IMG/VR virus record: IMGVR_UViG_3300024264_000006 | Coordinates: 64,001 to 128,000 of that record | Strand: one strand, 5' to 3' | DNA length: 64,000 nucleotides | Source: a virus | In this document: piece after piece, positions 1,808-56,560 of the stretch | Layout: every line of letters starts with the position of its first letter | Position numbering within the stretch: the first letter of the stretch is position 1 | Notes under the pieces: generated by a model | Databases searched by the model: none | What the model saw: the letters and a program-made list of their open reading frames with translations, nothing else | What the model was told of the DNA's origin: nothing | Translations under genes and position numbers: made by a program

Positions 1808-1960
1808 TTAGTTACTGAACTGTTCAGTCCAAGCGATAAAAACTTCCTTCGCTTCTTTCTTGTCCAGATCGAATGATTCCATCAAAACACGTGGAGCTGC
1901 GAACATGTTGATCTGTCCGGACTCACGTAGTTCATTCAAAAATTCAAAGTAGAATTCCAT
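1808..1960 (-). CDS. Small conserved phage protein, 50 aa (not in ORF track)
   Basis: MEFYFEFLNELRESGQINMFAAPRVL...; LRESGxxNMF motif common in phage early genes; coupled to upstream stop. Confidence 0.75.
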   Translation of the reverse strand: MEFYFEFLNELRESGQINMFAAPRVLMESFDLDKKEAKEVFIAWTEQFSN

Positions 1961-3357: not shown

Positions 3358-4573
3358 CAACGTCCAAATACCCACGTAATTGATCCATATTCAGCTTAGT
3401 ATCTTGGTAGAAAGGGGTCAGATCAAGGTCTTCCGGTATGGTATCAGCCAACTCCGGATTCCCCTGTTTTATCACTCTCCCAACAAAATAGTATTTATCT
3501 CCACGTTGTTCTACAAGATCACCCATTTCACGAGTCCAGTCATCACAGGATACCTGAAGTCTCGTGCCGTTGAATCGGACATCATAATAGTCGTCCGGTA
3601 CAGAACCAAGACACCAATCAGAATCCTCATCTTCAGGTAGGTATCTTACCAGAAGAGGTATGGCTGTGTCAATAGACCCGTAGTGTTGAAGGAAGGATAT
3701 ATTGTAATTTAGACACATCGTGTTGTATTCAGGCCCCATAGTGAACCCAGACATATTCATGAGAACATTGTTTTCGAAATAAGGATCGGAAGACAATATC
3801 CAATTGAGAACATCCCTATTCGGAACGATCATGTGAGATATGTGTTTGGAATTCACGAACCGACAAAACTCTTTTGAAGATGTGGTATGCCACTCATTCC
3901 TATCTGCAAGTGTGAAGTTGTAGTGTTTCTTAGATACCATCAGTGACGGTATGAGATCGGTAATCATTGCACTAGCATGGTGCATGTTCTTGGTATGTAA
4001 TACAACAGAGTCCTGTTCAAATTTAAAGATGTCGATATTGCGTTTACTCATATCGTACACTTCTTTGTGTGAGAAAGTAATCTGCCTAGAGAACTTTGTG
4101 GTTCCGGAAGTACTTGATATCAAGAAATCGTCTTCCGGTTGGACTTCCCACGGTTGGATGTCTTTATTTACCATATCAGACACTTGAGGTGGTCTGATAT
4201 TTTCTCCACCATACTGGTTTATCATCTCCGAATGTAACCCATCATAAAGCTTACTACCACTACCATCATCAAGACAAAACCTCGCAGGCCCGAATCTGGC
4301 GAGTTTAGTGAAGGGTAATGACTCCTTTTTTGCGGGTGAGTCTAAAAGTATGACACGTAAACCTAACTCAGCGCAGGCGAACAATGCAGTCACGTGCCAG
4401 TGGTTTACGTTAAGGATAGAGATTGCAACAAGGTCTCCCTTCTTCGCATGTCTCTTTACTAGGTATTGTTTCCACCTATTGATAAGACTTTCAAGGTGAT
4501 CATAATTGAACGTATCATTATATTCAACTTCTCTGTTTATTAAGTTCCTATTAATCTTCATAGAGTTTCCCAT
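3338..4573 (-). CDS. ANL-superfamily (AMP-binding) adenylate-forming enzyme-like protein, C-terminally short
   Basis: KKGDLVAI, SSTSGTTK P-loop, HYGSID, GD...YYFVGR motifs. Confidence 0.7.
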   Translation of the reverse strand: MGNSMKINRNLINREVEYNDTFNYDHLESLINRWKQYLVKRHAKKGDLVAISILNVNHWHVTALFACAELGLRVILLDSPAKKESLPFTKLARFGPARFCLDDGSGSKLYDGLHSEMINQYGGENIRPPQVSDMVNKDIQPWEVQPEDDFLISSTSGTTKFSRQITFSHKEVYDMSKRNIDIFKFEQDSVVLHTKNMHHASAMITDLIPSLMVSKKHYNFTLADRNEWHTTSSKEFCRFVNSKHISHMIVPNRDVLNWILSSDPYFENNVLMNMSGFTMGPEYNTMCLNYNISFLQHYGSIDTAIPLLVRYLPEDEDSDWCLGSVPDDYYDVRFNGTRLQVSCDDWTREMGDLVEQRGDKYYFVGRVIKQGNPELADTIPEDLDLTPFYQDTKLNMDQLRGYLDVAYNKKV

Positions 4574-7176: not shown

Positions 7177-9156
7177 TTAACCCTCGCAAGCACGGCACTC
7201 CTCTGTTTCTGATTGGATTTCTGTCTTTAACAATTCCATCAGTTCTTCGTAACCACCCACATATTCACCTTCAAGGTAAACCTGTGGGACGGTCTTAACT
7301 CTTCTACCTGTTACTTCAGCGGCAGTCTTACCTACCTCTTCCAGATCAATATAATCAAAGGGGATACCACGTAGGTTTAATTCGTCTTTAGTCATTTCAC
7401 AGAAAGGACAGTTCTTCTTACCGTACACCAAGGTACGTTTATCATCTTCAAGGGCAACTCTTTCTACCTTTTCAGACACATTCTCCGCACGAGAACTTGA
7501 TTCTGTACGTAGGTAGTAGAGTCCTTTGAGACCTGATTCCCATGCCTTCAAGTGCACCTTGTTGACATAAGACTTCTGGACACCAGATGGAAAGAAAAGA
7601 TTTACGGATTGACCTTGACAAATGTTGGGTTGTCTATCGGCCGCATGTTTGATAATCCATGTCTGATCTAATTCTTGTGCAGTCTTATATATGCTTTTCT
7701 CACCCTCAGTGAGTTCTGGTAAATGTTGTACCGAACCTTTATTGGTAATAATAGACTTCCAGATCGAATCGTTGTTTAGACCACGTGGTTCAAGTAATTG
7801 TTCTAGGTACTTGTTCTTAACTAAGAACGAACCCGCACGTGTACGATGTGTGTATGCATTTGCCTTCAACGGTTCAATAGATGGACTTGTCGATAAGATT
7901 ACGCCAGACGAGGCATTAGGAGCAATTGCAAGTAGATGGGCGTTACGTTGTCCACTTCCCACCCCATCAGGGTACTCCCCTCTCTCATCTGCCAGTAAAG
8001 CCGACTGCTTCGATGCCTGATCCTTAATTCTTTCGAACACAACCTTATTGATATCTCTAGCTCTTTCGGACTCCCAAGCAACTCCGTGTTTTTGTAACAA
8101 CGAGTGAAATCCCATCGCTCCAAGACCGATTGACCGTTCTCTTTCGGCGGAGTATTTGGCTCTTGTGATTGTGTCGGGTGCTTCGTCGATGAAGTACTGC
8201 AAGACGTTATCAAGCATAGTAATAAGATCAGCGACAATTGTAGTATCTTTCCATTCATCATAGTATTCCAAGTTCAGTGATGACAAACAACAGACGGCAG
8301 TTCTGTCTTCGTTTGTTGGTAAATGAATCTCATTACAGAGATTCGACCCATTGATTTTTAGACCCAAGTCTTTTAACGGTTGAGGTAAATCACGGTTTGC
8401 TGCATCGATAAAGTTTATGTATGGTTCACCTGTGCGAAACCGGACTTCAAGTATTCTTTCCCATAGTTTTCGTGCATTGATCATTTCCTTAACTTTATCG
8501 TCCTTGGGATCACGTAGTGCAAACTCTTTGTTGTCACGAACAGCTTCCATGAACTCATCGGTGATATTGATTGCGTTGTGTAGGTTCAATGCCTTACGTT
8601 GCACATCACCCGTAGGGATACGCATGTTCAAGAATTCAATAATGTCTGGATGACTCACGTCCATGTAGGCCGCATATGATCCTTTACGAGTCTTACCTTG
8701 ACGGTAAGCAATCATATCTGCGTCTACAGTGTGAAGGAAGGGAATTGGGCCTGGAGCAATGTCAGACACAGTTCGCACGTCTGACCAATGGCCTCCGACA
8801 CCCCCGCCGTAAACACTAAGCCAACGTAACTCAGAACTATGACTAATGAGACCGTCCAGAGTATCTGGGACATACGTAAGGAAACAGGAGATTGGCATCC
8901 CCTTTCCTTTGCCATGTCCATTCGGTGCATTAGATAGAACCGGACTTGCAAACATAAACCACTTATTACTAACATAATCATATAAACGTTCAGAGAGTCC
9001 TTCATCCATTTCTCCCTTATATGTTGACCATGCTTTGGCAGCACGTGCATACCCTTCTTGCGGCGAGTCTTCGTTGTCGTTTAGATAGAAATCCTTCAAC
9101 ATTCCCACAGCATAGTCTGCTAGTAGGTCATCCTTTTTTTTATTAATTTTGATCAT
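7177..9156 (-). CDS. nrdA: Ribonucleotide reductase class I alpha subunit with C-terminal glutaredoxin domain
   Basis: PISCF, GSNLCNEI, APNASS, GLYYLR; CPFC...TVPQV Grx domain; terminal CRAC. Start taken at MIKINK. Confidence 0.93.
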   Translation of the reverse strand: MIKINKKKDDLLADYAVGMLKDFYLNDNEDSPQEGYARAAKAWSTYKGEMDEGLSERLYDYVSNKWFMFASPVLSNAPNGHGKGKGMPISCFLTYVPDTLDGLISHSSELRWLSVYGGGVGGHWSDVRTVSDIAPGPIPFLHTVDADMIAYRQGKTRKGSYAAYMDVSHPDIIEFLNMRIPTGDVQRKALNLHNAINITDEFMEAVRDNKEFALRDPKDDKVKEMINARKLWERILEVRFRTGEPYINFIDAANRDLPQPLKDLGLKINGSNLCNEIHLPTNEDRTAVCCLSSLNLEYYDEWKDTTIVADLITMLDNVLQYFIDEAPDTITRAKYSAERERSIGLGAMGFHSLLQKHGVAWESERARDINKVVFERIKDQASKQSALLADERGEYPDGVGSGQRNAHLLAIAPNASSGVILSTSPSIEPLKANAYTHRTRAGSFLVKNKYLEQLLEPRGLNNDSIWKSIITNKGSVQHLPELTEGEKSIYKTAQELDQTWIIKHAADRQPNICQGQSVNLFFPSGVQKSYVNKVHLKAWESGLKGLYYLRTESSSRAENVSEKVERVALEDDKRTLVYGKKNCPFCEMTKDELNLRGIPFDYIDLEEVGKTAAEVTGRRVKTVPQVYLEGEYVGGYEELMELLKTEIQSETEECRACEG

Positions 9157-9166
9157 TCTTTTCCCA

Positions 9167-9517
9167 TTATAATTTACTGTAATCGTAGAAGGGGTCTGCT
9201 TCTGAAAACTCATATTCTTCTATAAAGACTTGTTTACCTGTCTCTATAAAAGTTTTAGCCATCTTCAACATGTACTCTTCCTGTTGATCCTCAAATATTT
9301 TGTCCTCATATAGTAGATGAGATAACATCGAGGTGTGGTAATTCTCCACGACAAATCTGTCGGGGTAGAGGTATTTATTACTGGTGCCATCTCTACAGAT
9401 GTATACTAGACTATCTTTTTCGTTTTCTTCTTGGAAAACTAAGACTTGATCGGACTCCTCGTTATCGAAGATTACGACATAGTGTCCGGAAGGTAAAGGT
9501 GTAATGTTCATACTCAC
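9167..9517 (-). CDS. Hypothetical protein heading the nrd operon
   Basis: ORF behind a sigma70 promoter; GGAG SD. Confidence 0.65.
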   Translation of the reverse strand: MSMNITPLPSGHYVVIFDNEESDQVLVFQEENEKDSLVYICRDGTSNKYLYPDRFVVENYHTSMLSHLLYEDKIFEDQQEEYMLKMAKTFIETGKQVFIEEYEFSEADPFYDYSKL

Positions 9518-9534: not shown

Positions 9535-9564
9535 ATTATATCAGTGGTTGGGGTACTTTGTCAA
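9535..9564 (-). promoter_or_regulatory. Sigma70-type promoter of the nrd operon
   Basis: TTGACA-N18-TATAAT. Confidence 0.75.
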
Positions 9565-9570
9565 GGGGTT

Positions 9571-9759
9571 TCATTTACTTTGTTGCTTAGATTTCTCTGA
9601 CCACTTCTCCATAAATCTGGACAAAACCTTAGCCATATCTTTGCGTTTCTTTTTGCGGTCAAACTTCTTACGGACAACAACGGTAGAAGAATCATCACCA
9701 GTTCCGACTACAGAACTAGTTCCAGTCATCTCTTCATAGAACTTATCGAATGATTTCAT
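9571..9759 (-). CDS. Small protein with capsid-targeting-like N-terminus
   Basis: MKSFDKFYEE resembles T4 CTS MKTYQEFIAE. Confidence 0.65.
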   Translation of the reverse strand: MKSFDKFYEEMTGTSSVVGTGDDSSTVVVRKKFDRKKKRKDMAKVLSRFMEKWSEKSKQQSK

Positions 9760-10352
9760 TTTGTTATCTCTCCGGTTGTGAAATATATGCGTTGTCTTGT
9801 TTTTAAATGTGTTCCTTCGTATATACTCAATCCCAACATCTCTTCAACCGGATTACCGTCTACGATTCTAATTTGATCGTCTTTACTGACAGCCTCAACA
9901 AAAGATGTTGCTGTCATGGAATCGTTCTTCATACGATATACGCCAGGCGATAACTCATTACCCTGTAACATAAACCACTGAGAATCTTCAGCGAGTACGT
10001 CAAGGATATCGATACCAGTCTTTGCGTGGATTTTTTCTATGTCGGTGTCAGATAGTTCACCGTGTTCTTTGATGAGAGCGAGAGCAGCACCATAACGTGC
10101 AACGACTGACTTACCGCCAGGCGCTTTCGCCATGATCTTCTTTAGGTTATATACGAGACGATGAAATGCGGTATAGTGATCTCTAAGGGCTTCACGATTC
10201 TCCATTGTATTATCGTCGAAGTCCTTACGTCTTTTTCCGTTCTCATCTACGATGCCTAGTTTGAATGCTTCAGTGTTTTCGATAGGAGTTACTAGCAACT
10301 TCAGAAATCGAATAGTGTATACTAGGTCTGCTGCAGATTTTAAGATTCCCAT
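9756..10352 (-). CDS. Conserved marine T4-like phage protein
   Basis: AADLVYTIRFLKLL...YTAFHRLVYNLK pattern. Confidence 0.7.
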   Translation of the reverse strand: MGILKSAADLVYTIRFLKLLVTPIENTEAFKLGIVDENGKRRKDFDDNTMENREALRDHYTAFHRLVYNLKKIMAKAPGGKSVVARYGAALALIKEHGELSDTDIEKIHAKTGIDILDVLAEDSQWFMLQGNELSPGVYRMKNDSMTATSFVEAVSKDDQIRIVDGNPVEEMLGLSIYEGTHLKTRQRIYFTTGEITK

Positions 10353-10718
10353 CTATATTCTCCTAATCTCTCTTAATCGCTCTACTGCGAGTTGATCCAT
10401 ATTTACTTCAGGATATCCATGTTCGTCAATGGCTCTTAGAAAAATTAGAAATGGTTTTAATACTGACCAGTGTTCCTTTTCTATTTTAAACTCTAGGATG
10501 TGTAATCCCGCCTCATAACCAAACACATTAAATACAACTATGAGGTGATTCAGAACCAATCTTTCACTCAGATCACCTTGGTCTTTATATCGGTTCAACA
10601 ATCTCTTTATGTACTTGAACCGTTTTAAGTCTTCAAAAAACTGATCACCATCAATCGCCATTGGTGTGTGATAATGCTTTGCTGCATATATCATCAGGTT
10701 CTTACTATTCAAATTCAT
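10353..10718 (-). CDS. Conserved marine T4-like phage protein
   Basis: YAAKHY...EDLKRFKYIKRLL...ERLVLNH pattern. Confidence 0.75.
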   Translation of the reverse strand: MNLNSKNLMIYAAKHYHTPMAIDGDQFFEDLKRFKYIKRLLNRYKDQGDLSERLVLNHLIVVFNVFGYEAGLHILEFKIEKEHWSVLKPFLIFLRAIDEHGYPEVNMDQLAVERLREIRRI

Positions 10719-10765
10719 TATATACCTTTCAGGATAAAATTAAGTCTATCCTTTATATAGGGGTG

Positions 10766-11074
10766 TCAAGATAGTTTTTCTATAAGACTCTTTTTACTAT
10801 CCCAAGTACGTACTTCAACACCACTTTGCTCTGCAAGAGCAACCAATTGAGGTTTAGTCATTGATGACAAACCCACGTTTCCGACAGGAGCTTCATGTAA
10901 CATCTGTGGTGCTTGATGAACTACCTGTTCCGTGACTTGACTAACACCAAGATAATCTTCGATCTCACCAGAAGTAATTCTTTGTGATTTCAAAAGTTCT
11001 CCCGTGACCGGATCAATCCAGCCACGAGTAGTAGGTGTAGAACTTGAAGCCCATGAGGGTGGTTTAATTGCCAT
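10766..11074 (-). CDS. Hypothetical protein with C-terminal Rho-N/HeH-like helix pair
   Basis: LSSMTKPQLVALAE...KKSLIEKL. Confidence 0.6.
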   Translation of the reverse strand: MAIKPPSWASSSTPTTRGWIDPVTGELLKSQRITSGEIEDYLGVSQVTEQVVHQAPQMLHEAPVGNVGLSSMTKPQLVALAEQSGVEVRTWDSKKSLIEKLS

Positions 11075-11076
11075 AA

Positions 11077-11781
11077 TTAGTCCTCTACTTTCTGATCTGC
11101 AACTTCTTGTGCGATTTCACCCCAAGTCTTACCAGACAATACATCCATGATCTTCTCACGTGATGTACGAGTGTCTTCCTTTACGGGGTTAACAACATTC
11201 TTGTCACCAGACTTATTATCGCCGGGTCTCTTAGGTGCTTCTTTACCAGAGTTACCTGCTTTAGTTGTTGCGTCAACTGCCTTTTCTTGATGTTTCTCAT
11301 GTTCAGGATCAGACTTCTTGTGTTTCGCAATAAATTCTTTTGACTTAGGAGATTCCTTGTCATCGATTTTTTCACCTTCTTCAGGTTTTGCCTTGGCTGC
11401 TTCACCAAGTGCATCGACCAATTGATCCAAATCTTCTTTAGTAGTCACCTTCTCACCGATCTTAGAAATCTCAGCGGTTTTACCGTCTGTGTTACCGGCT
11501 ACAGGCTTCTTTTTCTTCTTATCTTTTGAAAGATCAGTCTCTCCACCTTCTTGATCCTTATCGTCACTCTTCTTAGCGTCGATAGCATCGTCGGTAGCAG
11601 CACGCTTCTTGTGCAGATACTCATCTGAAGAATCTACGTCTCCATCATTGTCGATGTCCTTGTCCTTACGATCTTTGAACTTCTTATCGTTCTCTTTATC
11701 GTCTACAGGATCAAGTTTCTTTTTCTCAGAGACAACCTCAAGATACGCCTCCGCCATTTTTTTGATATCTTCCGTTCTCAT
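11077..11781 (-). CDS. Highly charged putative internal head protein with EF-hand-like loop
   Basis: D/E/K rich; DIDNDGDVDSSDEYL; VSE, LGE and VKE potential gp21-type sites. Confidence 0.6.
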   Translation of the reverse strand: MRTEDIKKMAEAYLEVVSEKKKLDPVDDKENDKKFKDRKDKDIDNDGDVDSSDEYLHKKRAATDDAIDAKKSDDKDQEGGETDLSKDKKKKKPVAGNTDGKTAEISKIGEKVTTKEDLDQLVDALGEAAKAKPEEGEKIDDKESPKSKEFIAKHKKSDPEHEKHQEKAVDATTKAGNSGKEAPKRPGDNKSGDKNVVNPVKEDTRTSREKIMDVLSGKTWGEIAQEVADQKVED

Positions 11782-11792
11782 TATTGTCTCCG

Positions 11793-12086
11793 TTACATGA
11801 ACCAGAATAGTTTGATTATACCGCCGATCACACCAGTGCCGACGATCAGGGCGATTCTATTAATAATATGTACAGTCCTAGCATTATCATCCACTTTCTT
11901 TTCGATGTCATCGAGCTTCTGGGAGAATCTATTCATTCTCTCAAAATTAGAGTGGTTGTTCTTCTCAATAGCTATAAGCTTCTCCTCCGCCCGAGCGAGA
12001 GCAATCATCGCATCTGCGAGTTTATCAATCTTTTCCTCAATTCTGTCAAGTCGTTTTGCTTGAGTTTGATGAGTTTCTACTGCCAT
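11793..12086 (-). CDS. Coiled-coil protein with C-terminal transmembrane helix (late)
   Basis: RLDRIEEKIDKL coiled coil, hydrophobic C-terminus; late promoter upstream. Confidence 0.7.
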   Translation of the reverse strand: MAVETHQTQAKRLDRIEEKIDKLADAMIALARAEEKLIAIEKNNHSNFERMNRFSQKLDDIEKKVDDNARTVHIINRIALIVGTGVIGGIIKLFWFM

Positions 12087-12126
12087 TTGTGTACCTATCC
12101 CATAGAAATATAGTAATAACTTATTC

Positions 12127-12134
12127 TATTTATA
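12127..12134 (-). promoter_or_regulatory. T4-type late promoter
   Basis: TATAAATA on minus strand in an intergenic gap. Confidence 0.75.
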
Positions 12135-12139
12135 TTATT

Positions 12140-12490
12140 TTAATTATCAACCTTAGCGCTTCCACGCCATTGATAACAACTCCAATACCTCGCTTTCCAC
12201 TTAGGGCCAGGATTTGCACAATTGTGCCTTGCTCTAAATGACGCTCTCTTCTTAGGGTTGTCTCTATTGATTCCCATATTGGGATCACCAAATCGAACAA
12301 CCACAACCTTACCACTTTCATTCTTTACATACACCTTGAACTTCTTATTAGGGTTCTCAGATGTACGAATAGGGTCATTTAGTTTGACCTTCTTGCCTTG
12401 GTATTCTGACTCAGTTATTTCCAAGTCTTCGAAAAGATCATTGCATTCGCAATGTTCATCTATGCTTAAGTACTCTGTAAATTTTTTCAT
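12140..12490 (-). CDS. DUF6321-like basic protein with CTS-like N-terminus
   Basis: MKKFTEYL..; VRFGDPNM...RASFRARHNC...ARYWSC. Confidence 0.75.
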   Translation of the reverse strand: MKKFTEYLSIDEHCECNDLFEDLEITESEYQGKKVKLNDPIRTSENPNKKFKVYVKNESGKVVVVRFGDPNMGINRDNPKKRASFRARHNCANPGPKWKARYWSCYQWRGSAKVDN

Positions 12491-12771
12491 GTGATGTATG
12501 TATTGAGTTCGTAACGTTTGTTGTCCAAATTAGTTACCTGTACTGCAAGCATCTTACGCTTCTCATCCTTTAATTTGAGAGTGAAACTGTTGGTCTTACC
12601 ATTGGAAGGTTTCCTAGGCCCCATTGCCACCTTTCTATCAATGTCATCGGTATCCACTTCAAAACCCCTTTTCTTCGCAAATGCGTATGCAGCTGCCATC
12701 GCAGCAGAATAGGTTTTGTGGTAGATTGGATAAGAATCCTTCTTTTCTCTTAATTGGTCAAATGTAATCAT
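12487..12771 (-). CDS. Putative internal protein
   Basis: MITFDQLRE N-terminus; YELNTY C-terminus. Confidence 0.65.
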   Translation of the reverse strand: MITFDQLREKKDSYPIYHKTYSAAMAAAYAFAKKRGFEVDTDDIDRKVAMGPRKPSNGKTNSFTLKLKDEKRKMLAVQVTNLDNKRYELNTYIT

Positions 12772-12773
12772 GG

Positions 12774-13505
12774 TTACCTCTTCTTCATCATTTTGTAGGC
12801 GATAGAGGCAAGAGCGGGGACAGTCATTCCGTCCATTCGCTTCTTGTTCTGATCATTGACTTTATCGTAGATTTGAGTAATTGCGGATGCTGTAAACATA
12901 TCTACCATAACACCATTGACCTTCTTGGCCTGTTGATTCTTTACTATATCACGTAGTTGATCCATATGTCCAGCCTTTTTTTCAGTAATTCCATCACAGT
13001 TCTCTGCTTGTTCTTCAATTTCAGTAGATTCAAACATTTTAGCAAGTTGCTTCGCATTAACTGTTTTGAATGAACCGAACTCATCAGTAACCCTAAATGA
13101 TAACTTACTACCATCAACTTTCATATCGACGGTGTGTACTTTACCCTTCTTATCTCTAAGACCTTTTTTAATCTTAGGGGGTCTTGCAGCCTCACTGACT
13201 TCTGCTTGTTCTTGCATCAAGCGTCCATTCTTGAACATTCCATGTTTCTTAAGAATTGTCAAAACACCATCACGGGGATCGGTGTCCATATTAGAAACAT
13301 GTTTCTTCAATCCCATGAATGCCTTGTTCTGAACCATAGTAGATGAGTTTTTACCAATCTCTCTTACGTATGCGGCCGCCTTTTCGAAATCTCTCTTGTC
13401 GATACCACCAGACTTCTTTGCGTAGTCAGATAGTGCCTTGGATGTCTTGAAGAAATCAATTGATTCATTGACTTTTATTTTTTTACGCAGTTCTTTTAAA
13501 TACAT
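12774..13505 (-). CDS. Putative multi-module internal protein
   Basis: MYLKELR; modules separated by VNE/VSE/MFE/ITE; VDMFTASAI module. Confidence 0.65.
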   Translation of the reverse strand: MYLKELRKKIKVNESIDFFKTSKALSDYAKKSGGIDKRDFEKAAAYVREIGKNSSTMVQNKAFMGLKKHVSNMDTDPRDGVLTILKKHGMFKNGRLMQEQAEVSEAARPPKIKKGLRDKKGKVHTVDMKVDGSKLSFRVTDEFGSFKTVNAKQLAKMFESTEIEEQAENCDGITEKKAGHMDQLRDIVKNQQAKKVNGVMVDMFTASAITQIYDKVNDQNKKRMDGMTVPALASIAYKMMKKR

Positions 13506-13753
13506 TATGCTAAATCCTTATCGTGGTTGAGACCACCTTTTTTCTTTTTTACTATGAAGGCGTTGACACGTGCATATCCCCATTGTTGAGGGGTAGTGCC
13601 TGGCCTATGACCAGTCTTCCAAGCTGCAACACCACGATTATAAACCTTTCTTAAAGTAGCTACGGAGATACCAGATTTCTTTGCTTTCGCAGCAAGTCCG
13701 TCTGGGCCTTCTCCCAAGTCACCTAAACTGTCCCAAAGAGAGTATCGTTTCAT
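13505..13753 (-). CDS. DUF5824-like small basic protein
   Basis: KAKKSGIS..LRKVYNRGVAAWKTGHRPG..QQWGYARVNAF. Confidence 0.75.
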   Translation of the reverse strand: MKRYSLWDSLGDLGEGPDGLAAKAKKSGISVATLRKVYNRGVAAWKTGHRPGTTPQQWGYARVNAFIVKKKKGGLNHDKDLA

Positions 13754-15261
13754 TCCGTCTCCCGATTTTTAACTTTAGCACGAGCGAGTCTTGCTCGATC
13801 TAGAACTCTATCGTGTCTTTTTTTGTCTTGTTCTTTTTCTCTGTTGATATCATTACGAGCGGATTTTACTGGATCGGTCTCTTCATATGCCTCACCACGT
13901 ACCGCACCACCCAATGCTTTGATATCCAACTTCAAACCGTGTTTACGGATAAGTTGTTGTGCGTAGTACTCAGGGCCATGTCTACCCTTGTCCGCTTTCA
14001 TTTGTTTGCGGATATGTTTCGCAACTTGTTGGTACTGTTTTTTCTTAACTGTTTTTGATGCCCAACGGGATATCATCTGAGGTGTGGTCTCTGCCTTGAG
14101 ACACATCTCAAAAGTAATTTCAAGTTCTTCAGGTACGCAATCAGGAACCATCTTGTTCCCTTTCTTCTTCATACCGACTTCTTTGTACCCATCCCAACAG
14201 TCTTCGTCATACATATCTTTGAATGCTTTGGTGTACTTGGACGGTTTGGTCTTTGCGGTCTTGTCGCCAGGCGCAGGCTTATATGCAGATGCGTCATCAT
14301 CATCCTTCTTGCCATGCTTCTTAAAATGTGCGTCTCGTTTTGACTTGGTAGACTTCTTTAGTCCGGCGTGATATTTTGCGGGTTGTGTACCTTCTCTATC
14401 TTTGATATCGGGGTCTTGTCGTTCAATGAGTTCGACTGACTCCAACCATTTGCGTAGTCGAGTGCCGTTCTTGCGTTCAACGATAACGTAATTTGATCCG
14501 AGTACACTGACCGTAGCCACTTCTTCGCTTTCTTTAATAACAACAGAATCTCCAATTTCATAGAGTTTACCCTGTACATATTTTTCTCTTGTTTCTGAAA
14601 CAGGCGTTAGTTCAATATGATTCTTGAATGAGTGCTCTTCCTTGAGCCCCATCCCTTTACGGACATCATTGAACAACTTCCTTGCATCTCTGTCCGACAT
14701 AGACTTAGGCACACCCTGTGCAAAAGTCACGAAGTCATTGTTCTGTGCGTTTGCACGTTGCTTAGATGCGGACATACCTTCCACACCTTCAGCATCCGGA
14801 TCACGTTTACCAGCGGATACTACACGAATAGTTTCGAAGTTATAAAACCCGTGACGAGCTTTCTTACCATTGTACTTAGACAACAGGACATCAAACTCAC
14901 GTACACGGTCATCCCCGACAACCATTGTTACTTTTTTATACCCTTGGTCATACAACCGTGAGGCGACATCAAATACATTCTTGACGTTCTTGTCGATCAT
15001 CACACTACGTGCATGTTTTGGAAACATCTTACGCACATGTTTAACCTTGTCTGAATATGACAAAGGGTCTTTCTTGGGGTTTGATACTTGGGACAAATAG
15101 ACTTTGTAGTCTGCGCCACCAGATTTGGAGGCAAGTGTGTCCATTACTTTACCGTGGCCGATAGTAGGTGGGTTCATTCTACCAAAGGTAAAATAAACTT
15201 CCCTTTCTTCTTCGACTAGGTACTGTGAAAAATTCTTAATCATCTTTGTTCTGTCCGCCAC
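13750..15261 (-). CDS. HIGH-motif cytidyltransferase/NMNAT-like nucleotidyltransferase, multi-domain
   Basis: FTFGRMNPPTIGH, VVGDDR, SAGKRDPD..GMSAS; then KOW-like, QPAKY...KPSKYT and CWDGY..VPDCVP modules; likely start MIKNFSQYLVEE. Confidence 0.8.
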   Translation of the reverse strand: MADRTKMIKNFSQYLVEEEREVYFTFGRMNPPTIGHGKVMDTLASKSGGADYKVYLSQVSNPKKDPLSYSDKVKHVRKMFPKHARSVMIDKNVKNVFDVASRLYDQGYKKVTMVVGDDRVREFDVLLSKYNGKKARHGFYNFETIRVVSAGKRDPDAEGVEGMSASKQRANAQNNDFVTFAQGVPKSMSDRDARKLFNDVRKGMGLKEEHSFKNHIELTPVSETREKYVQGKLYEIGDSVVIKESEEVATVSVLGSNYVIVERKNGTRLRKWLESVELIERQDPDIKDREGTQPAKYHAGLKKSTKSKRDAHFKKHGKKDDDDASAYKPAPGDKTAKTKPSKYTKAFKDMYDEDCWDGYKEVGMKKKGNKMVPDCVPEELEITFEMCLKAETTPQMISRWASKTVKKKQYQQVAKHIRKQMKADKGRHGPEYYAQQLIRKHGLKLDIKALGGAVRGEAYEETDPVKSARNDINREKEQDKKRHDRVLDRARLARAKVKNRETE

Positions 15262-15664
15262 GCTTTCGGTCTTTTTCCATTTTGCGTACTTTAGGTAACA
15301 GTTTACGAGCTACCTTATCAATTTTAGGACGCATCTTATCTAGGCGTTTCTCTATCTCTTGTCTACGAGCAAATGAGAGTTTACCTTTATCCGCACCCTT
15401 AGTCAACTTTTTGAAGAACATAGTACGTGCTTGTTTCTGTGCACGTTTCTTAAGTTTGTCCATATCGGCAAATTTACGTGCAGCTCTTTTACGCCCCATG
15501 GCGATCTTAGCTTTATTCTTCTTGAGTGATCGTGCGAGTTTTCGACGGGCAGCAAAATCTAATGCTTCTTCGGCGTTTTTCTTTGATTTGTATGCAACCT
15601 GATCGTCACCCGATTGAGTGCGATCTGTGGTTGTGAAGTCTTTAAATCCTAATGGCTTTGCCAT
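15236..15664 (-). CDS. Very basic conserved phage protein
   Basis: K/R-rich helix after EEAL; LGFKDF N-terminus. Confidence 0.7.
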   Translation of the reverse strand: MAKPLGFKDFTTTDRTQSGDDQVAYKSKKNAEEALDFAARRKLARSLKKNKAKIAMGRKRAARKFADMDKLKKRAQKQARTMFFKKLTKGADKGKLSFARRQEIEKRLDKMRPKIDKVARKLLPKVRKMEKDRKRGGQNKDD

Positions 15665-15667
15665 TTC

Positions 15668-16885
15668 TTACCTCTTTGGTTTATCCCATCCTTTCAAAAT
15701 ATCAGGCGAAAAGTTGTTATATGAAAATTCCATACGGTCAACGAGTTTCACTGCGTCACCACCAAGTTTGTCGATTGCTACGTAGCCTTCTTCGCCAGTT
15801 ACCTTGTAACCTTTGTTTGTTTTAACGAACGTATCAATCTTCTTTAAACTATCAAGTTTATTTATAAGTTTCATCTTCGCTAAAACGATCTGTTTTTGCA
15901 ATTCAAACATTTTAACAAGAGATTTTTTATTTGTTAGTGAGAAAAATTTCATGTAGGCGTCGAGTTTATCCTGTTGAGTTTTCTTGCCTCGTGCAGTACT
16001 TCTCTTATCCATCTCTGCCTTGAACTTTTTATTGATCCAATTAATAAGTCCGTTTACGTGCGTAGAAGTGTTACCAATCACCTGGCCAACCCGCACAAAA
16101 GTGTTATTGTATTGTTCTATCAACTTGGCAAGGTCATCGTTACCTTCAAGTTCTCGCAGAGTAGTACCGGATATCTGATTGAACAATTTACCAGCCTTAC
16201 TCAAGTAACCCGTTACTTCCGCAGTTTCTTTCTTATCCATCGTTGCATTTGTCACATCACGTAACATGGCGTCCTGAGACCACACACCAACTGAGTTGCG
16301 GAACTTAGATACATCAACACCATAGGATGCTTTCATAGACTCAAAGTCCGATCCGGTGTAGGTAGTATGCCATACGATACCGATCTTAGATTTTAGAATG
16401 TCCCCAGCCATTGATACGGGAACAGCATATACGATAGTATTAGGATGGAACGTAACATATTTTTCTCCATCGATGGTCTCTTTCTTTAAATCGCCGGGCC
16501 CGTAGAGGAAGTCACCCTGAACAACACCCTTGATGCCTAGAGCAGGAAGTTCTGCAAGTGCAACCTTCATTTTGTCTGCAAGGTCACCACTCATGTCCAC
16601 ATCAATCTCAGCATCGGTCTTATAGATTTTTGGATTCTTTGCAAAGATACCCTTTTTCGCAACAAAAAACTTTCCGTCATTGGGGTCTTGACCACAGAAA
16701 ATTGCAGGCGCACCGTCCCACTTAATGGAGACTCGACCTGTATCCTTTCCGCCTAACATATCACGCAACTCACGTAGAGCGTTTATTGCTTGACGTGTAC
16801 CATCAACACCACCATAGAGAACCTTGTCCTCAATGTGGGTCATGTGGGTGTTTTTATTCTCTGTTATAAACTCTGCGAATTTCAT
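15668..16885 (-). CDS. DUF6267-like protein with ligase-type nucleotidyltransferase motifs
   Basis: KNTHMTHIED; KWDG, VQGDF, EEGYV, VKLVDR; MKFAEFITE N-terminus. Confidence 0.75.
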   Translation of the reverse strand: MKFAEFITENKNTHMTHIEDKVLYGGVDGTRQAINALRELRDMLGGKDTGRVSIKWDGAPAIFCGQDPNDGKFFVAKKGIFAKNPKIYKTDAEIDVDMSGDLADKMKVALAELPALGIKGVVQGDFLYGPGDLKKETIDGEKYVTFHPNTIVYAVPVSMAGDILKSKIGIVWHTTYTGSDFESMKASYGVDVSKFRNSVGVWSQDAMLRDVTNATMDKKETAEVTGYLSKAGKLFNQISGTTLRELEGNDDLAKLIEQYNNTFVRVGQVIGNTSTHVNGLINWINKKFKAEMDKRSTARGKKTQQDKLDAYMKFFSLTNKKSLVKMFELQKQIVLAKMKLINKLDSLKKIDTFVKTNKGYKVTGEEGYVAIDKLGGDAVKLVDRMEFSYNNFSPDILKGWDKPKR

Positions 16886-17331
16886 TTTCTCACCATGTTG
16901 AACATAGTTCCACTGCTACTTGTGTCGGTTGAAATCTTATATGCTCTGCCTAAATTCTTTGTTAAAAGTCTCTTGTACAATCTCTCTCTTCCCTGTAATA
17001 ATTTCTTATTACCTTTTTCTTTACCTGCCGCTGCATTCATATACTTGGGTTTTTCTATCTTAACAAATTGATTGACCACCTTAAAAACGGTTGCCATGAT
17101 ACGCAATGCATCACCCTCACCCGTCATTGATTGTTGACCATTACGTTCAAAACTAATCTCCCAATCTATGTGGTCATAGTCATCGATGTGTTCATCACCT
17201 TCGATGTTTATATTTAATTGACCACCATCATCAAGTTTAACTGTAGAACGATACCCCTGTTTCCCGTCCTTCTTTAGAGTGGCTGGATAAGGGTTGTCTA
17301 GTGATTCGGTTAGTTCTTTAAACCTAATCAT
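16882..17331 (-). CDS. Putative internal protein
   Basis: MIRFKELTE N-terminus; TGEGDALRIMATV...RERLY pattern. Confidence 0.65.
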   Translation of the reverse strand: MIRFKELTESLDNPYPATLKKDGKQGYRSTVKLDDGGQLNINIEGDEHIDDYDHIDWEISFERNGQQSMTGEGDALRIMATVFKVVNQFVKIEKPKYMNAAAGKEKGNKKLLQGRERLYKRLLTKNLGRAYKISTDTSSSGTMFNMVRK

Positions 17332-18428
17332 CAGTTTGCCTTCGTATTCGGTTTGTAATCACACATAATATGTGATGGGTAGAGACCACCCTGTTTGTTA
17401 CGAATATTAAATTTGAATATGTAGAGTGGGGTGACAACTTCTATGTCAATTCTTTTTGCTTCACCTTTCTTAGGATAGAGAATCTTGATCGACTTGATTG
17501 TAGAAGCCTTTCTCATACGTGCTCTAGTCATCTCATAGAACTCTACCTTCTTACCTTTACGGTGTACCATCCAGTATCCCATACCGATACCCGTAATCAG
17601 AAGTCTTTGTAGTGCACGTCTGTTTGCTTGTGTTGGAATGACAACATCTTTTTTACCACGAGTAGCCGCCTTTTTAGGATCGTACTTGGTAAACGTTTCG
17701 ATGAATCTATCATGATCGATGCCGAACATGTTTAATAGTTTCTTAGCATCAGTGTGTGTGATCTTGCCACTATTAAACTGATCGTCGGTAAAGATGGTGC
17801 GGACACCCGCATTGAAAAATGTTACTGTACCACCAAATTTGGCAGACAGATAGTATGTACCCTTGTCGGTAGTAACTGTTACGTCTGTTACTTTGTGACC
17901 AATGTTCAGTTCACGTGAACCGATAACTGCACTAACATCTCCGAACACTAAGGGTCTTTTGGTGTTCGCTGTACCGTCTAGTTTAACTTCGATAAAAGAT
18001 GCATCCTTCAGAAACGCATCGTGCATTTTCTTTATCATATTAGGGAACTTGAAATCCCCATCTAGACCGGCTTCTTTATACTTGATTAGGTCAGTCACAA
18101 TCTGACCTTCGAATGCAAACCCTTGTGAGTTTATTCCACCGCCTCCACGAGAACCATTTCCCGCACTAAGTTTGAAACCATATTCGGAACCAAGGGCCGG
18201 TAGATTTAAATCAACTGCAACGGATCGTGCAATTTTAAGACCTTTCTCTTTAGGATTTTTAGATAATGCAATGGGATCAGCCATACCAGTTTGCTGAGTG
18301 ATATAGGCGTAGAGTGTCTTGAGGTTTTCCCTCTTCTCATCGGATAGATGATCTAGGTCATCTACCTCTGCTTGAGATTTTGGAATTATGTCATATGCTT
18401 CTGACACATACGATCCGAACTTCAACAT
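17331..18428 (-). CDS. Putative PD-(D/E)XK-fold nuclease-like protein, late
   Basis: GFAFE...VTDVTV...YLSAK; MLKFGSYVSE N-terminus. Confidence 0.55.
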   Translation of the reverse strand: MLKFGSYVSEAYDIIPKSQAEVDDLDHLSDEKRENLKTLYAYITQQTGMADPIALSKNPKEKGLKIARSVAVDLNLPALGSEYGFKLSAGNGSRGGGGINSQGFAFEGQIVTDLIKYKEAGLDGDFKFPNMIKKMHDAFLKDASFIEVKLDGTANTKRPLVFGDVSAVIGSRELNIGHKVTDVTVTTDKGTYYLSAKFGGTVTFFNAGVRTIFTDDQFNSGKITHTDAKKLLNMFGIDHDRFIETFTKYDPKKAATRGKKDVVIPTQANRRALQRLLITGIGMGYWMVHRKGKKVEFYEMTRARMRKASTIKSIKILYPKKGEAKRIDIEVVTPLYIFKFNIRNKQGGLYPSHIMCDYKPNTKAN

Positions 18429-18465
18429 GGCGTTATTCCCATAAGTCTTGGTGATTATACCATAC

Positions 18466-18473
18466 TATTTATA
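18466..18473 (-). promoter_or_regulatory. T4-type late promoter heading the internal-protein cluster
   Basis: TATAAATA about 38 nt upstream of ATG 18428. Confidence 0.8.
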
Positions 18474-19152
18474 AGAATTGCACGCTTGTATTTTCCTCAT
18501 TGTATTGTGCAATTGTCTCTTTTAATGGTCTTACCCAATTGTCACGGTGTTCGATAAAGACCTGAGGCTCGTGGTTGTCTACCGCAATGATAGTTACCAA
18601 CTGAGTGATAGGAATACCTGTACGTTCTTCCCACATAATTGAGTATGCAGATTCTTGCATGAAGTACTGTTTGATCATAGAAGGAAACTTCTTCTTACGA
18701 GAAGTTTTGAAATCTATGATGCTGAGGGCGCCATCAAACTCAGCAACGCAATCCACCCGACCAGCCACACCAAGGTGATTGGAATAGAGTGGAGCCTCTT
18801 GTGCAAATACTGTCCCAATACGATTGTCGAGGATATCACGAACATCATTAAGAGACTGAATAATATCAGGTGTGTATCCATCTTTATAATCCTCTTTGTT
18901 ATCAATGTACTTTTCGATAATCTCATGAACCTTCGTACCACGAGTTGAAGCAACACGAGATATTCGGTTTGCTTCTTCATCACCAACACGTCTACGCCAA
19001 GCGGCAATACCGTCTCGACTTAGGATTGACAGACATGTAGTGATTGAAGGTAGATCAACGCCTTCTGGGGTATGGTACTTACGACCTTCCTCAGTAGTCA
19101 CTGCTTCCATCTCTGTTAGTTCCACCTGTTTGTGGTCAAATATCTTTCTCAT
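18469..19152 (-). CDS. PD-(D/E)XK (Cas4-like) exonuclease
   Basis: PSITT, RGTKVH, AGRVDC, IIDFKTS, YFMQ..AY. Confidence 0.85.
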   Translation of the reverse strand: MRKIFDHKQVELTEMEAVTTEEGRKYHTPEGVDLPSITTCLSILSRDGIAAWRRRVGDEEANRISRVASTRGTKVHEIIEKYIDNKEDYKDGYTPDIIQSLNDVRDILDNRIGTVFAQEAPLYSNHLGVAGRVDCVAEFDGALSIIDFKTSRKKKFPSMIKQYFMQESAYSIMWEERTGIPITQLVTIIAVDNHEPQVFIEHRDNWVRPLKETIAQYNEENTSVQFL

Positions 19153-45167: not shown

Positions 45168-45624
45168 GGATAACTTCTATGCCACATTTCTCAAGAAAAG
45201 AAATACCAGCATCACCTTTGTGATATGTGTTGTTATAGAAAACCCTTGATATGCCAGATTGATGTATGAGTTTAGCGCAATCCATACATGGTGCCATAGT
45301 CACGTATAGACTAGAACCTTCGGACGATTCTCCAGACCTAGCAACCTTAGCGATTGCATTTGTCTCTGCATGTAAAACTTCAGGTTTAGTTTTGAGTTTC
45401 ACATAGATCGGATCAACAGTTTTTTCGTGTTGGGCCCAGATAGGCCAGTCTTCATCTTCACAGTTATTATCCCAACCAGAGGGCATACCATTGTATCCAA
45501 TGGAGATGATCCGGTTATCCTTTACAATAACACATCCAACTTTTGCTCTGCGACCATGTGAAAGATTGGCATACACATGAGCTGCATCCATGTGAGCATA
45601 GTCCCACTTAGTCAATGATTCCAT
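45151..45624 (-). CDS. dCMP deaminase
   Basis: VGCVIV, GYNG, HAETNA, PCMDC. Confidence 0.92.
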   Translation of the reverse strand: MESLTKWDYAHMDAAHVYANLSHGRRAKVGCVIVKDNRIISIGYNGMPSGWDNNCEDEDWPIWAQHEKTVDPIYVKLKTKPEVLHAETNAIAKVARSGESSEGSSLYVTMAPCMDCAKLIHQSGISRVFYNNTYHKGDAGISFLEKCGIEVIHVPDR

Positions 45625-45829
45625 CTTTCTTCACCCCAAAACGAATGACGTTGTACCAAAGCCTTTCGTGATAATAATATAATACAAACTTAATTACCAT
45701 ATCCGCAATGAATACAGCTCCGATTGCTTTTGCAGGCATTCCAAATGCCCATGCGATTAATGCTGTTGTTGTTGAAGCAATAATTCTCCAAGTAACAGCC
45801 TTCATCAAATGTCTTTTCTTACTAATCAA
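45608..45829 (-). CDS. DUF2061 membrane protein
   Basis: KAVTWR...YYYHERLW. Confidence 0.8.
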   Translation of the reverse strand: MISKKRHLMKAVTWRIIASTTTALIAWAFGMPAKAIGAVFIADMVIKFVLYYYHERLWYNVIRFGVKKDGIID

Positions 45830-46241
45830 TATCTAACGCTTCCTTAATTTTTGGCGGGAAGTATGCATCGGGTTTCATGACCTTTCCGGTATCAGGATTT
45901 TTCATCAACTGTCCATCCTGTACTTTACTCATGTTGGATTCCCATACGGCATCCCACACTTTATAGAAGTCAATACCTAGTGTACTACTTAGTCCCATGA
46001 TAACCCACACCATATCAGCAATACCGTCAGCAACTCCTACAACATCTTTATCTGCGAACGCTTCCTTGGTTTCTAGGAACTCTTCTTCAACCAAGTCCAT
46101 ATACAATTTTGATTGATCTTCATCAAACATGATTGTAGGATCGTCCGGTATAACATACCTCAATGGTTGATCCGCAGCCACCATAAAGATGTCAACATCT
46201 TCTTGAGGTGAGAACCCTTTACTTTGTTGTTTATCTGTCAT
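45822..46241 (-). CDS. MazG/PRA-PH-like NTP pyrophosphohydrolase
   Basis: LVEEEF.E, ADGIAD, V.ESNMSK, GKVMKP; start taken at MTDKQ (AAGGA SD). Confidence 0.85.
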   Translation of the reverse strand: MTDKQQSKGFSPQEDVDIFMVAADQPLRYVIPDDPTIMFDEDQSKLYMDLVEEEFLETKEAFADKDVVGVADGIADMVWVIMGLSSTLGIDFYKVWDAVWESNMSKVQDGQLMKNPDTGKVMKPDAYFPPKIKEALDID

Positions 46242-55399: not shown

Positions 55400-55953
55400 G
55401 CCCTTTCTAAATTACCTGAAACAGTGACACGAAGTTCATCACTAGTGTAAAATGGATAGACACAATGTTTTAGTTTAGATGGAAACATAAACATCTTATT
55501 GTTATACAACTTGTCTACCGGAATAAATTTCTCACACAGATCACCATACATGTTGGCAAACTGAAAAGAAAAGTGTCCAGAACAAGATGCACTAGTGTCC
55601 GGATACATGTTAAGTTCGTCCTCAATATCATACGGGACATCCACAAACATTACAAATGATAGATCGCCTCCGTGTCGGTGTGGCGGATTGAACTCATGTT
55701 TAGCCATAAGGTTAACCCACAAGTCCACCATGTTCCACTTACCTTTTTGCCACCCGTGGGCGGTCTGTTCCACGTAGTTCCTAACATTACTACGGCAACT
55801 TTCTAGTAGATACTCTCGTTTTATATTACCCGCAAGTGCACTGTTATAAGGTTTTAAATCTTCGTAGTGTGCGGATTCCAATTTGACTGCATTCATTACA
55901 TCCTTGGGAACAACAGTCTCTACATATTCACTATCAACTAGGGTCTTTATCAT
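55396..55953 (-). CDS. Putative 2OG-Fe(II) oxygenase
   Basis: WVN, FNPPHRH, FPSKLKHCVYP, RVTVSGN. Confidence 0.8.
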   Translation of the reverse strand: MIKTLVDSEYVETVVPKDVMNAVKLESAHYEDLKPYNSALAGNIKREYLLESCRSNVRNYVEQTAHGWQKGKWNMVDLWVNLMAKHEFNPPHRHGGDLSFVMFVDVPYDIEDELNMYPDTSASCSGHFSFQFANMYGDLCEKFIPVDKLYNNKMFMFPSKLKHCVYPFYTSDELRVTVSGNLERA

Positions 55954-56560
55954 CTACTAAAAAATCCGTTAGGTCTGAGTCTACTTTGACAGTTCTGCGT
56001 TTGCGCTTCTTCTGTTCATTTACATATTCTTTGAATTCCGCATCAGCACCTTTCACTTGATCAATGCGATAACGTAAAGTTTCTACGAATGGAATAATAT
56101 TAGAGTAATCTCTTTCCTGATTGCTAGCATGACCATCAAGGAATGACTCTACACCAGCTTCAGTGATATACTTCATCTTGATGTCTTGTTGTTTCTTTTC
56201 CTTCTGTATCCTACGCAAGAATGCATACCATGATATCTGTGTAAAGTAAGCAAACGCATTGGGTAGTCCGGTACGTGTTGCAGTCTTGATATCATAGTTC
56301 TCAATTGCCTTGAGACAGTTCTCTACCGCATCCATCACCATCTCTTCACGATAAGTGTACCGGACGAAGTTTGCTTTATGGGATAACCCCTGACAAATCT
56401 TCAGAAAACATTCTGCGATATAGTTTGGCACAACAGGTTTGGGGTCTCCTTTCTTTTCACACCATTCTACTCGTTGACAGTATTCAACAACAGCTTCAGA
56501 AAATTGTCTGTTGTTAACGTAATGTGGTTTATCTTTTGGTTTGATTTTTTGCTTAGTCAC
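55934..56560 (-). CDS. 55: Late transcription sigma factor gp55
   Basis: HYVNN, NF.RYTYREEM, NAFAYFTQI..AFLRRI.KEKKQ. Confidence 0.95.
   Translation of the reverse strand: MTKQKIKPKDKPHYVNNRQFSEAVVEYCQRVEWCEKKGDPKPVVPNYIAECFLKICQGLSHKANFVRYTYREEMVMDAVENCLKAIENYDIKTATRTGLPNAFAYFTQISWYAFLRRIQKEKKQQDIKMKYITEAGVESFLDGHASNQERDYSNIIPFVETLRYRIDQVKGADAEFKEYVNEQKKRKRRTVKVDSDLTDFLVDDKDPS

Follow-up and report, generated by a model that had tools for sequence, protein, structure and literature searches.

Leader peptides resembling the T4 capsid targeting sequence on a late operon of basic proteins in an uncultured marine T4-like phage

The stretch of DNA analysed here, referred to below as the window, comprises the 64,000 nucleotides (nt) at positions 64001-128000 of IMGVR_UViG_3300024264_000006, a 147.6-kb contig of an uncultured T4-like phage that is estimated to be 87% complete. 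On its minus strand it carries a cluster of late genes, most of which encode basic proteins that begin with short, similar leader peptides, and these leaders probably act as capsid targeting sequences of the T4 type. The cluster, for which all coordinates are window positions, is flanked by an exonuclease gene (18469-19152) and nrdA (7177-9213). The window also holds gp43, gp41, uvsX, gp44/45/46/47 and the gene for the gp55 late sigma factor, and gp20/21/22/23 lie just past it. The nearest isolate is Phage C48C1 (OQ984149, filed under Kyanoviridae), in which the cluster is syntenic and the DUF6267 protein is 67% identical; a megablast search with the region gave no match among isolated phages. 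In the order of transcription, and with isoelectric points given as pI, the features are as follows.

18466-18473, minus strand: late promoter TATAAATA, 38-45 nt 5' of the first gene of the operon
17331-18428, minus strand: 365-aa basic protein (pI 9.6); leader MLKFGSYVSE, with the predicted cut before AYDIIPK
16882-17331, minus strand: 149-aa basic protein; leader MIRFKELTE (one relative has MKTFNELIE before the same SLNNPY)
15668-16885, minus strand: 405-aa DUF6267 protein (Pfam 2.3e-104, domain from residue 12); leader MKFAEFITE
15236-15664, minus strand: 142-aa very basic protein (pI 10.8); variant leader MAKPLGFKDF...D, with the aromatic pair and no Glu cut site (relatives start MLSFKDFLTVD or MPKPLGFKDFLTVD)
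13750-15243, minus strand: 497-aa protein, a predicted HxGH nucleotidyltransferase with the N-terminal part of DUF5824; leader MIKNFSQYLVE
13505-13753, minus strand: 82-aa basic protein, the C-terminal part of DUF5824 (Pfam 5.4e-20); leaderless in this genome
12774-13505, minus strand: 243-aa basic protein; extended variant leader MYLKELRKKIKVNE before SIDFFK (relatives have MKNLSQITE and then AIDFMK, the same boundary)
12487-12771, minus strand: 94-aa basic protein; leader MITFDQLRE (MKSFKQIRE or MKSFKNFIE in relatives)
12140-12490, minus strand: 116-aa basic, Cys-rich protein, encoded by the last gene of the packed operon; leader MKKFTEYLSIDE (relatives MK[KST]F..[EH]), with a phrog_7595 match that begins at residue 25
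12127-12134, minus strand: second late promoter TATAAATA, ahead of the 97-aa gene
9756-12086, minus strand: five late genes without a compact leader (pI 5.3-8.1), which serve as internal negative controls: a 97-aa coiled-coil/transmembrane protein, a 234-aa acidic DNDGD-rich protein, a 102-aa protein, a 121-aa DUF7207 protein and a 198-aa protein
9571-9759, minus strand: 62-aa basic protein; leader MKSFDKFYEE; resembles T4 gp61.1
9535-9564, minus strand: perfect extended sigma-70-type promoter (TTGACA, 18 nt, TG-TATAAT)
55934-56560: gene for the gp55 late sigma factor

The nine genes from 18428 to 12140 form a tightly packed block with intergenic spacings of -8 to +3 nt, and both TATAAATA boxes that an earlier note on this DNA had placed at 18466 and 12127 are indeed found there on the minus strand. 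Over about 1 Mb of related contigs, this box occurs 233 times on the gene strand versus twice on the opposite one. It stands ahead of the 365-aa family in 7/7 relatives and never ahead of operon-internal genes, and the second box, ahead of the 97-aa family, is kept in 25/40 relatives. Because of this strand bias and this placement, the term "late operon" chosen in the earlier note is a fair label, and the cluster is, as judged from its promoter sequences, under late-promoter control. The sigma-70-type promoter lies just past the last leader-bearing gene and at the head of the nrd genes, marking a sharp boundary between late and early genes.

The capsid targeting sequence (CTS) of T4 and its use on the variable internal proteins of T-even phages are textbook knowledge. 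Amber-suppression experiments on the T4 peptide have shown that its targeting depends on residues 4 and 7 and its processing on residues 8 and 10, and that an Asp at its end permits targeting but blocks cleavage (PMC9026906). All nine open reading frames (ORFs) for which similar N-termini had been described are present on the minus strand of the window. The likeness that had been claimed for all nine leaders is upheld for six strong and compact ones of 9-12 residues (17331-18428, 16882-17331, 15668-16885, 13750-15243, 12487-12771 and 9571-9759), but the other three, MKKFTEYLSIDE, MYLKELRKKIKVNE and MAKPLGFKDF..D, the last of which has no Glu, are variants. Seven of the nine fit the aromatic or hydrophobic targeting positions 4 and 7 of T4, and six end compactly in a site of the gp21 type, the leader of the 15236-15664 product ending in Asp. 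The 503-aa ORF that had been listed among them exists, but its better start is the ATG at 15243, which overlaps the upstream gene by 8 nt and gives a protein beginning with MIKNFSQYLVEE.

How specific are these leaders to the cluster? Enrichment was assessed with the Fisher test on about 200 ORFs of the 147.6-kb genome, as 15 cluster ORFs versus 185 elsewhere. The motif proposed in the earlier note matches five cluster ORFs and one other true start; it had been fitted to these same sequences, and two further motifs were therefore added. One that draws on the T4 experiments only, ^M-x(1,3)-[FY]-x-x-[FYL], matches 7/15 cluster ORFs versus 10/185 elsewhere (p = 4e-5), and a compact leader motif 6/15 versus 2/185 (p = 1.6e-6). 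The two outside matches of the latter are gp23, which as the major capsid protein is itself a predicted substrate of the head protease, and a P-loop kinase (291 aa, basic). The replication genes are without a leader in this genome-wide scan, in line with what had been noted before. A plain BLOSUM62 score of all N-termini against the single T4 peptide discriminated poorly, with unrelated ORFs ranking high, and position-specific tests were used in its place. As a positive control, a version of the motif written as a DNA pattern recovers T4 ipII and ipIII.

The leader appears to lie outside the folded part of the proteins: Pfam and PHROG domains begin at residues 10-25, and in two structural models with a mean predicted local distance difference test (pLDDT) score of 90-94, residues 1-10 score below 50. 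The nine operon products have a pI of 9.2-10.8 versus a genome median of 5.5 (p = 3e-7). At the DNA level the leaders differ in synonymous codons; their likeness is therefore one of peptides and not of a repeated DNA element, and an origin through DNA repeats or recombination was rejected.

To follow the leaders through related phages, we compared 80 IMG/VR loci that encode a DUF6267 protein at least 70% identical to that of the window, out of at least 594 such loci. The DUF6267 leader is kept in 71/80, in the form M-x(1,2)-F-x-x-[FYH]-I-T-E immediately before the conserved KNTHMTHIED, and that of the nucleotidyltransferase takes the form M-I-x-x-F-x-x-[YF]-L-[VI]-E-E. In these loci a leader is also kept on the 62-, 94-, 116- and 142-aa families, and it never occurs on the 97-, 102-, 121- and 198-aa proteins or on the exonuclease. 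It is kept across two protein families that include representatives of 35-60% identity; among distant DUF6267 cluster representatives of this range with a readable N-terminus, roughly half have the leader and about one fifth lack it. When logos are right-aligned on an independently set domain boundary, they show Met at P10, Phe at P7 (63-68%), Phe/Tyr at P4 (plus His/Leu), Ile/Leu/Val at P3 (71-84%), Ser/Thr at P2 and Glu at P1 (97-100%). This is the register of T4 MKTYQEFIAE, and the conserved positions coincide with the four that were set by experiment in T4 (4, 7, 8 and 10).

Several families come both with and without the leader. In the 365-aa family, leaders ending in [L/F/V]-S-E are followed by A-Y-D-I-I-P-K, and at least 12 clusters begin directly with M-AYDIIPK. 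The 82-aa ORF of the window starts M-KRYS, and C48C1 and others carry MITFKKYLEE or MINFKKYLEE right before the same KRYS/GRYS. Because such leaderless variants start exactly at the predicted cut, the leader is, on this comparison of sequences, a detachable module with its boundary at that cut. DUF6267 is leaderless in P-HM2, in other cyanophage homologues and in a Vibrio jumbo phage, as is the P-HM2 nucleotidyltransferase. An explanation of leaderless DUF6267 by phages that lack the S77 head protease was rejected: the protease is present in S-SM1, in P-HM2 and in the Vibrio jumbo phage, and the tag is therefore specific to the protein. Furthermore, relatives have a variable slot 5' of DUF6267 that is occupied by at least six unrelated proteins of 260-470 aa, all of them leader-bearing. 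A Pfam search of ten variable-slot proteins from relatives returned no domain; some such proteins match phrog_3060 or phrog_1462.

In T4, the internal proteins IPI, IPII and IPIII and the Alt protein carry a CTS that is removed by gp21, according to Mullaney and Black 1996 as related in PMC9026906 and PMC3012670. The genome studied here encodes an S77 protease of its own (PF03420, 4.5e-42, genome 130518-131177), with gp22 and gp23 adjacent. In T4 gp23 the cut follows the FLTE that ends at residue 65 (PMC5694885), and this site aligns with FMTE followed by A here and with FLTE followed by T in C48C1. The specificity of the head protease is therefore plausibly conserved, and the gp23 site resembles the F-I-T-E of the DUF6267 leader. 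Moreover, an uncalled ORF with the same type of leader lies in the head gene region.

Genome 131174-131392 (outside the window), minus strand: uncalled ORF (72 aa, basic); leader M-KTFEQIRE; start codon TTG, with a GGAG ribosome-binding site and a TATAAATA of its own

This ORF sits between a gp67-like acidic ORF and gp21, directly upstream of the latter, and its sequence and position make it a candidate for a true internal protein of T4-style appearance. Its homologue in C48C1 has a GTG start and the leader MRTFKELRE, and is annotated from an internal Met. Two starts in the GenBank record of C48C1 (OQ984149; pieces 10685-12028 and 3558-3698) are apparently called too far downstream, so that the cytidyltransferase is missing its conserved beginning and the small head-module ORF its leader.

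The strongest external support for packaging is provided by S-SM1. Among the proteins of purified S-SM1 virions, Sullivan et al. 2010 reported a "putative citidylyltransferase (T4-GC190)", along with other hypothetical proteins that they listed as structural (PMC3037559). In the S-SM1 record, T4-GC190 is SSM1_190, and the cluster syntenic to ours runs from SSM1_188 to SSM1_198. Those detected in virions according to Table S8 are GC1453 (SSM1_188), GC1454 (191), GC1455 (192), GC425 (195) and GC426 (197), and GC71, the DUF6267 homologue SSM1_189, has no proteomic mark in the gene table (PMC3037559). SSM1_190, to which the nucleotidyltransferase of the window is 40% identical over 277 residues, starts MKKFSAFLNE and SSM1_192 starts MLSFKELQE; SSM1_189 is leaderless. 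Two pattern scans of the whole S-SM1 record gave gene-start matches for SSM1_190 and SSM1_192 only, both of which were detected in virions. The two phages thus share a homologous enzyme, a syntenic late cluster and the same type of leader on virion-detected proteins. They differ in that DUF6267 of S-SM1, like that of P-HM2, is leaderless, and in that the S-SM1 proteins were reported as unexplained structural proteins; neither a targeting leader nor processing was found to be mentioned in the text of Sullivan et al. 2010 (PMC3037559).

The proposal of the earlier note that the leaders are T4-type capsid-targeting propeptides is strongly supported by the match to the T4 determinants, by variants that break at the predicted cut, by the same leader beside the head protease gene, and by leader-bearing homologues and neighbours in S-SM1 virions (PMC3037559). 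We consider it probable that the leaders are such sequences and work by the packaging mechanism outlined below. Judged by sequence, packaging of the tagged proteins into the head is likely; binding to the core, cleavage of the leader, ejection and the biological role are what we infer beyond this.

The earlier note also spoke of several enzyme-sized cargo proteins, and three fit that description on sequence and structural prediction: a nuclease fold, an RNA-ligase-like enzyme and a nucleotidyltransferase. By sequence, the three largest proteins had no match among PDB chains, and an NCBIfam search yielded nothing useful. The AlphaFold2 (AF2) model of the 365-aa protein (pLDDT 90, residues 1-9 below 50) matches MspI with a Z-score of 8.4 (199/262 aligned) and HinP1I with 7.9, the next row being at 6.2, and Foldseek gives a probability of 0.94. 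Invariant in the family are D182, S195 and K197, forming D...S-x-K. In two independent programs these matches stand clearly above the others; the model has an MspI/HinP1I-like PD-(D/E)xK endonuclease fold, and the protein is a predicted nuclease. For the DUF6267 protein (AF2 model with pLDDT 94, residues 1-10 below 50), the top structural matches with long alignments are all RNA ligases at Z 7.1-7.7: the fungal Trl1 ligase domain, Trl1-LIG (Z 7.7 with 199 aligned), the Rnl of Naegleria (Z 7.7), and Rnl2 and Rnl1 of T4 (Z 7.3 each). Among 110 sequences of 35-60% identity, K55-x-D57-G58, D125, E366-G367 and K380 are invariant, the later nucleotidyltransferase motifs having been assigned by eye. 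This is suggestive of an RNA-ligase-like covalent nucleotidyltransferase, the fold evidence not being decisive. The 497-aa protein has T-I-G-H near its N-terminus and a PHROG cytidyltransferase match of 6.9e-68; Pfam PF01467 (CTP_transf_like) matches weakly, with 18.2 bits under a cut-off of 21, and a protein atlas search returned viral CTP_transf_like clusters only. A further enzyme is the kinase that the compact motif had picked out far from the cluster.

Genome 45242-46117, minus strand: 291-aa basic P-loop kinase (Zeta-toxin/AAA_33, phrog_5268) with the leader MQSFNSFLHEE; the profile match starts at residue 20

Elsewhere, DUF6267, CTP_transf_like and DUF5824 occur in one polypeptide, and in P0121 of another phage an AAA_33/Zeta kinase and DUF6267 are apparently fused or adjacent; such fusions would tie DUF6267, the kinase, the nucleotidyltransferase and DUF5824 to one pathway. 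A location of the kinase next to DUF6267 was looked for in the 80 related loci and did not hold. A kinase and a ligase together would follow the logic of RNA end healing and sealing.

Under the proposed mechanism, gp55-dependent TATAAATA promoters would express the packed operon of basic proteins late in infection. The first 9-14 residues of each protein would bind it to the scaffolding core of the prohead, with Phe at P7 and Phe/Tyr/Leu at P4 as determinants. The gp21-type (S77) head protease would then remove the leader after [I/L/V]-x-Glu, the kind of site that is also predicted for the major capsid protein. The mature proteins would stay in the head with the DNA and leave with it at infection, by analogy with IPI-III and Alt of T4. 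The cargo would consist of the restriction-endonuclease-fold protein, the RNA-ligase-like DUF6267 protein, the HxGH nucleotidyltransferase, the small basic proteins and the distant P-loop kinase. A bolder version, which we regard as unlikely, holds that the particle delivers a pre-made kit before any phage gene is expressed, in which a restriction-like endonuclease attacks host nucleic acid, and the kinase, DUF6267 and HxGH proteins form an end-healing and sealing set that repairs tRNA or mRNA cut by abortive-infection ribonucleases. If true, the T4 Pnkp/Rnl1 counter-defence would have an injected counterpart, and a widespread one, in a very abundant lineage of ocean phages.

Several observations weigh against the interpretation of the leaders as packaging signals for an injected cargo. 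The virion evidence comes from S-SM1 and not from this phage or its closest relatives, and it amounts to two proteins from one study in which mature N-termini were unmapped. Degeneracy affects three of the nine leaders, and MAKPLGFKDF..D, one of them, ends in the Asp that blocks cleavage in T4. T4 gp61.1 bears such a leader and is not known to be a head protein. A 50-aa acidic ORF in an early-looking region (window 1811-1960, minus strand), MEFYFEFLNE at its start, matches the DNA pattern of the leader, and is either a false positive or another use of the motif. The fold matches of DUF6267 are middling (Z below 8, Foldseek E of about 0.1). For ejection and a role in counter-defence, the argument is one of analogy throughout.

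A first alternative is that the proteins do enter the prohead but act within the particle or its assembly, as auxiliary parts of the core or scaffold, as counter-ions that condense the DNA, or in processing or repairing ends and nicks of the packaged genome, rather than as injected effectors. All of them are strongly basic, as DNA counter-ions would be, and the core proteins gp67 and gp68 of T4 are loaded too, to be broken down afterwards (PMC5694885). The phage's own DNA could just as well be the target of the nuclease fold, the ligase-like enzyme and the kinase, and the acidic DNDGD protein of the same cluster resembles a scaffold-like component, its putative S-SM1 counterpart being found in virions. 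However, the T4 cargo with a CTS (IPI-III and Alt) is ejected (PMC9026906, PMC3012670), the hypervariable slot with its unrelated large proteins looks like arms-race turnover rather than a set of conserved assembly parts, and cyanophages have leaderless versions of the same enzymes, which are thus not needed inside the head. We deem a role confined to the particle rather improbable.

A second alternative, for which we see little probability, is that the N-terminus signals something else, such as translation of late mRNA, localisation to the membrane or an assembly site, or regulated degradation, and that its likeness to the T4 CTS is convergent. Codons that favour initiation, namely AAA, TTT and GAA, abound in the leader, and both gp61.1 and the acidic early ORF named above would fit such a signal. 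Yet other late genes of the cluster do without a leader, the leaders differ in DNA, and selection acts on four particular residues, among them a Glu that is invariant at the domain boundary, rather than on codon composition. The small basic protein of the head module bears the same leader, and leader-bearing proteins of S-SM1 are found in virions. Lastly, a chance or compositional likeness of short N-termini without shared function could appeal to the brevity of the motif and to the unrelated ORFs that rank high in the BLOSUM comparison, but is effectively refuted by Fisher p values of 1e-6 to 4e-5 within the genome, by conservation over about 80 contigs and representatives of two families at 35-60% identity, and by boundaries of presence and absence that coincide in independent families.

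Read as capsid targeting sequences, the leaders compare closely with what is known from T4. Both are N-terminal peptides of about ten residues in the same register (Met, x, x, aromatic, x, x, aromatic, Ile/Leu, x, Glu), and both systems have basic cargo, an S77 protease, a gp22 scaffold, an aligned x-T-E site in gp23 and late promoters; as among the relatives of T4, the cargo set varies and the tag is conserved. In contrast to T4, which has four or five tagged proteins, there are 9-11 here, encoded in one late operon in the 41-61/nrd replication region of a marine Kyanoviridae-like phage and known from their genes alone. The cargo includes predicted nucleic-acid enzymes of 40-57 kDa, whereas that of T4 consists of small inhibitors and one ADP-ribosyltransferase. 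The variable slot is reminiscent of the hyperplastic internal-protein loci of T-even phages, where, as Repoila et al. 1994 are cited in PMC9026906, unrelated proteins swap and the tag stays; unlike what that citation conveys, the proteins here are of 260-470 aa instead of small and basic, and lie upstream of a conserved DUF6267/nucleotidyltransferase pair. In phiKZ, 201phi2-1 and SPN3US, a protease of the same family also cuts after Glu, and many head-internal proteins, including a virion RNA polymerase, are loaded and ejected (PMC5694885). Their propeptides are mostly longer than 100 residues and have an A/S-x-E motif (PMC5694885), unlike the short tag of T4 type found here.

A 2022 review has suggested that the CTS may be a general loading route in T4-like phages (PMC9026906). 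Our literature search found nothing on a CTS in marine or cyanophage lineages or on its link to the virion cytidylyltransferase (the KVP40 genome paper lay outside the search), and nothing relevant on DUF6267/DUF5824, Phage C48C1 or the T4 peptide string. If our interpretation of the leaders is true, the head-loading tag of T4 works almost unchanged in distant, extremely abundant marine T4-like phages; a protein search with DUF6267 matched more than 8000 clusters. It would also explain the cytidylyltransferase and hypothetical proteins in purified cyanophage particles, and would offer a sequence rule for predicting packaged, and probably injected, proteins straight from metagenomes. It may furthermore give the first functional clues for DUF6267, DUF5824 and phrog_8438, and it suggests that nucleases and enzymes of RNA-repair type can reach the cell in finished form, brought along by the phage.

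Two further observations concern individual proteins of the cluster. The 234-aa acidic protein (window 11077-11781) has a stretch of the D-x-D-x-D-G-D type and a conserved N-terminus with YLE and VSE sites, and is 59% identical over 59 residues to part of PHM2_164 of P-HM2. SSM1_191 of S-SM1, present in the virion proteome, has a similar DNDGD stretch; BLASTP between SSM1_191 and the 234-aa protein gave no match. The other observation concerns T4 itself. Gp61.1 (54 aa, NC_000866 18966-19130) begins with MKTFKEFIKE, after which come a stretch of Gly, Ser and Val and a tail rich in Lys; it is alike to the 62-aa protein of the window, and both are encoded in the interval between genes 41 and 61/nrd. 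Going by its sequence, gp61.1 may be an unrecognised CTS-bearing protein of T4.

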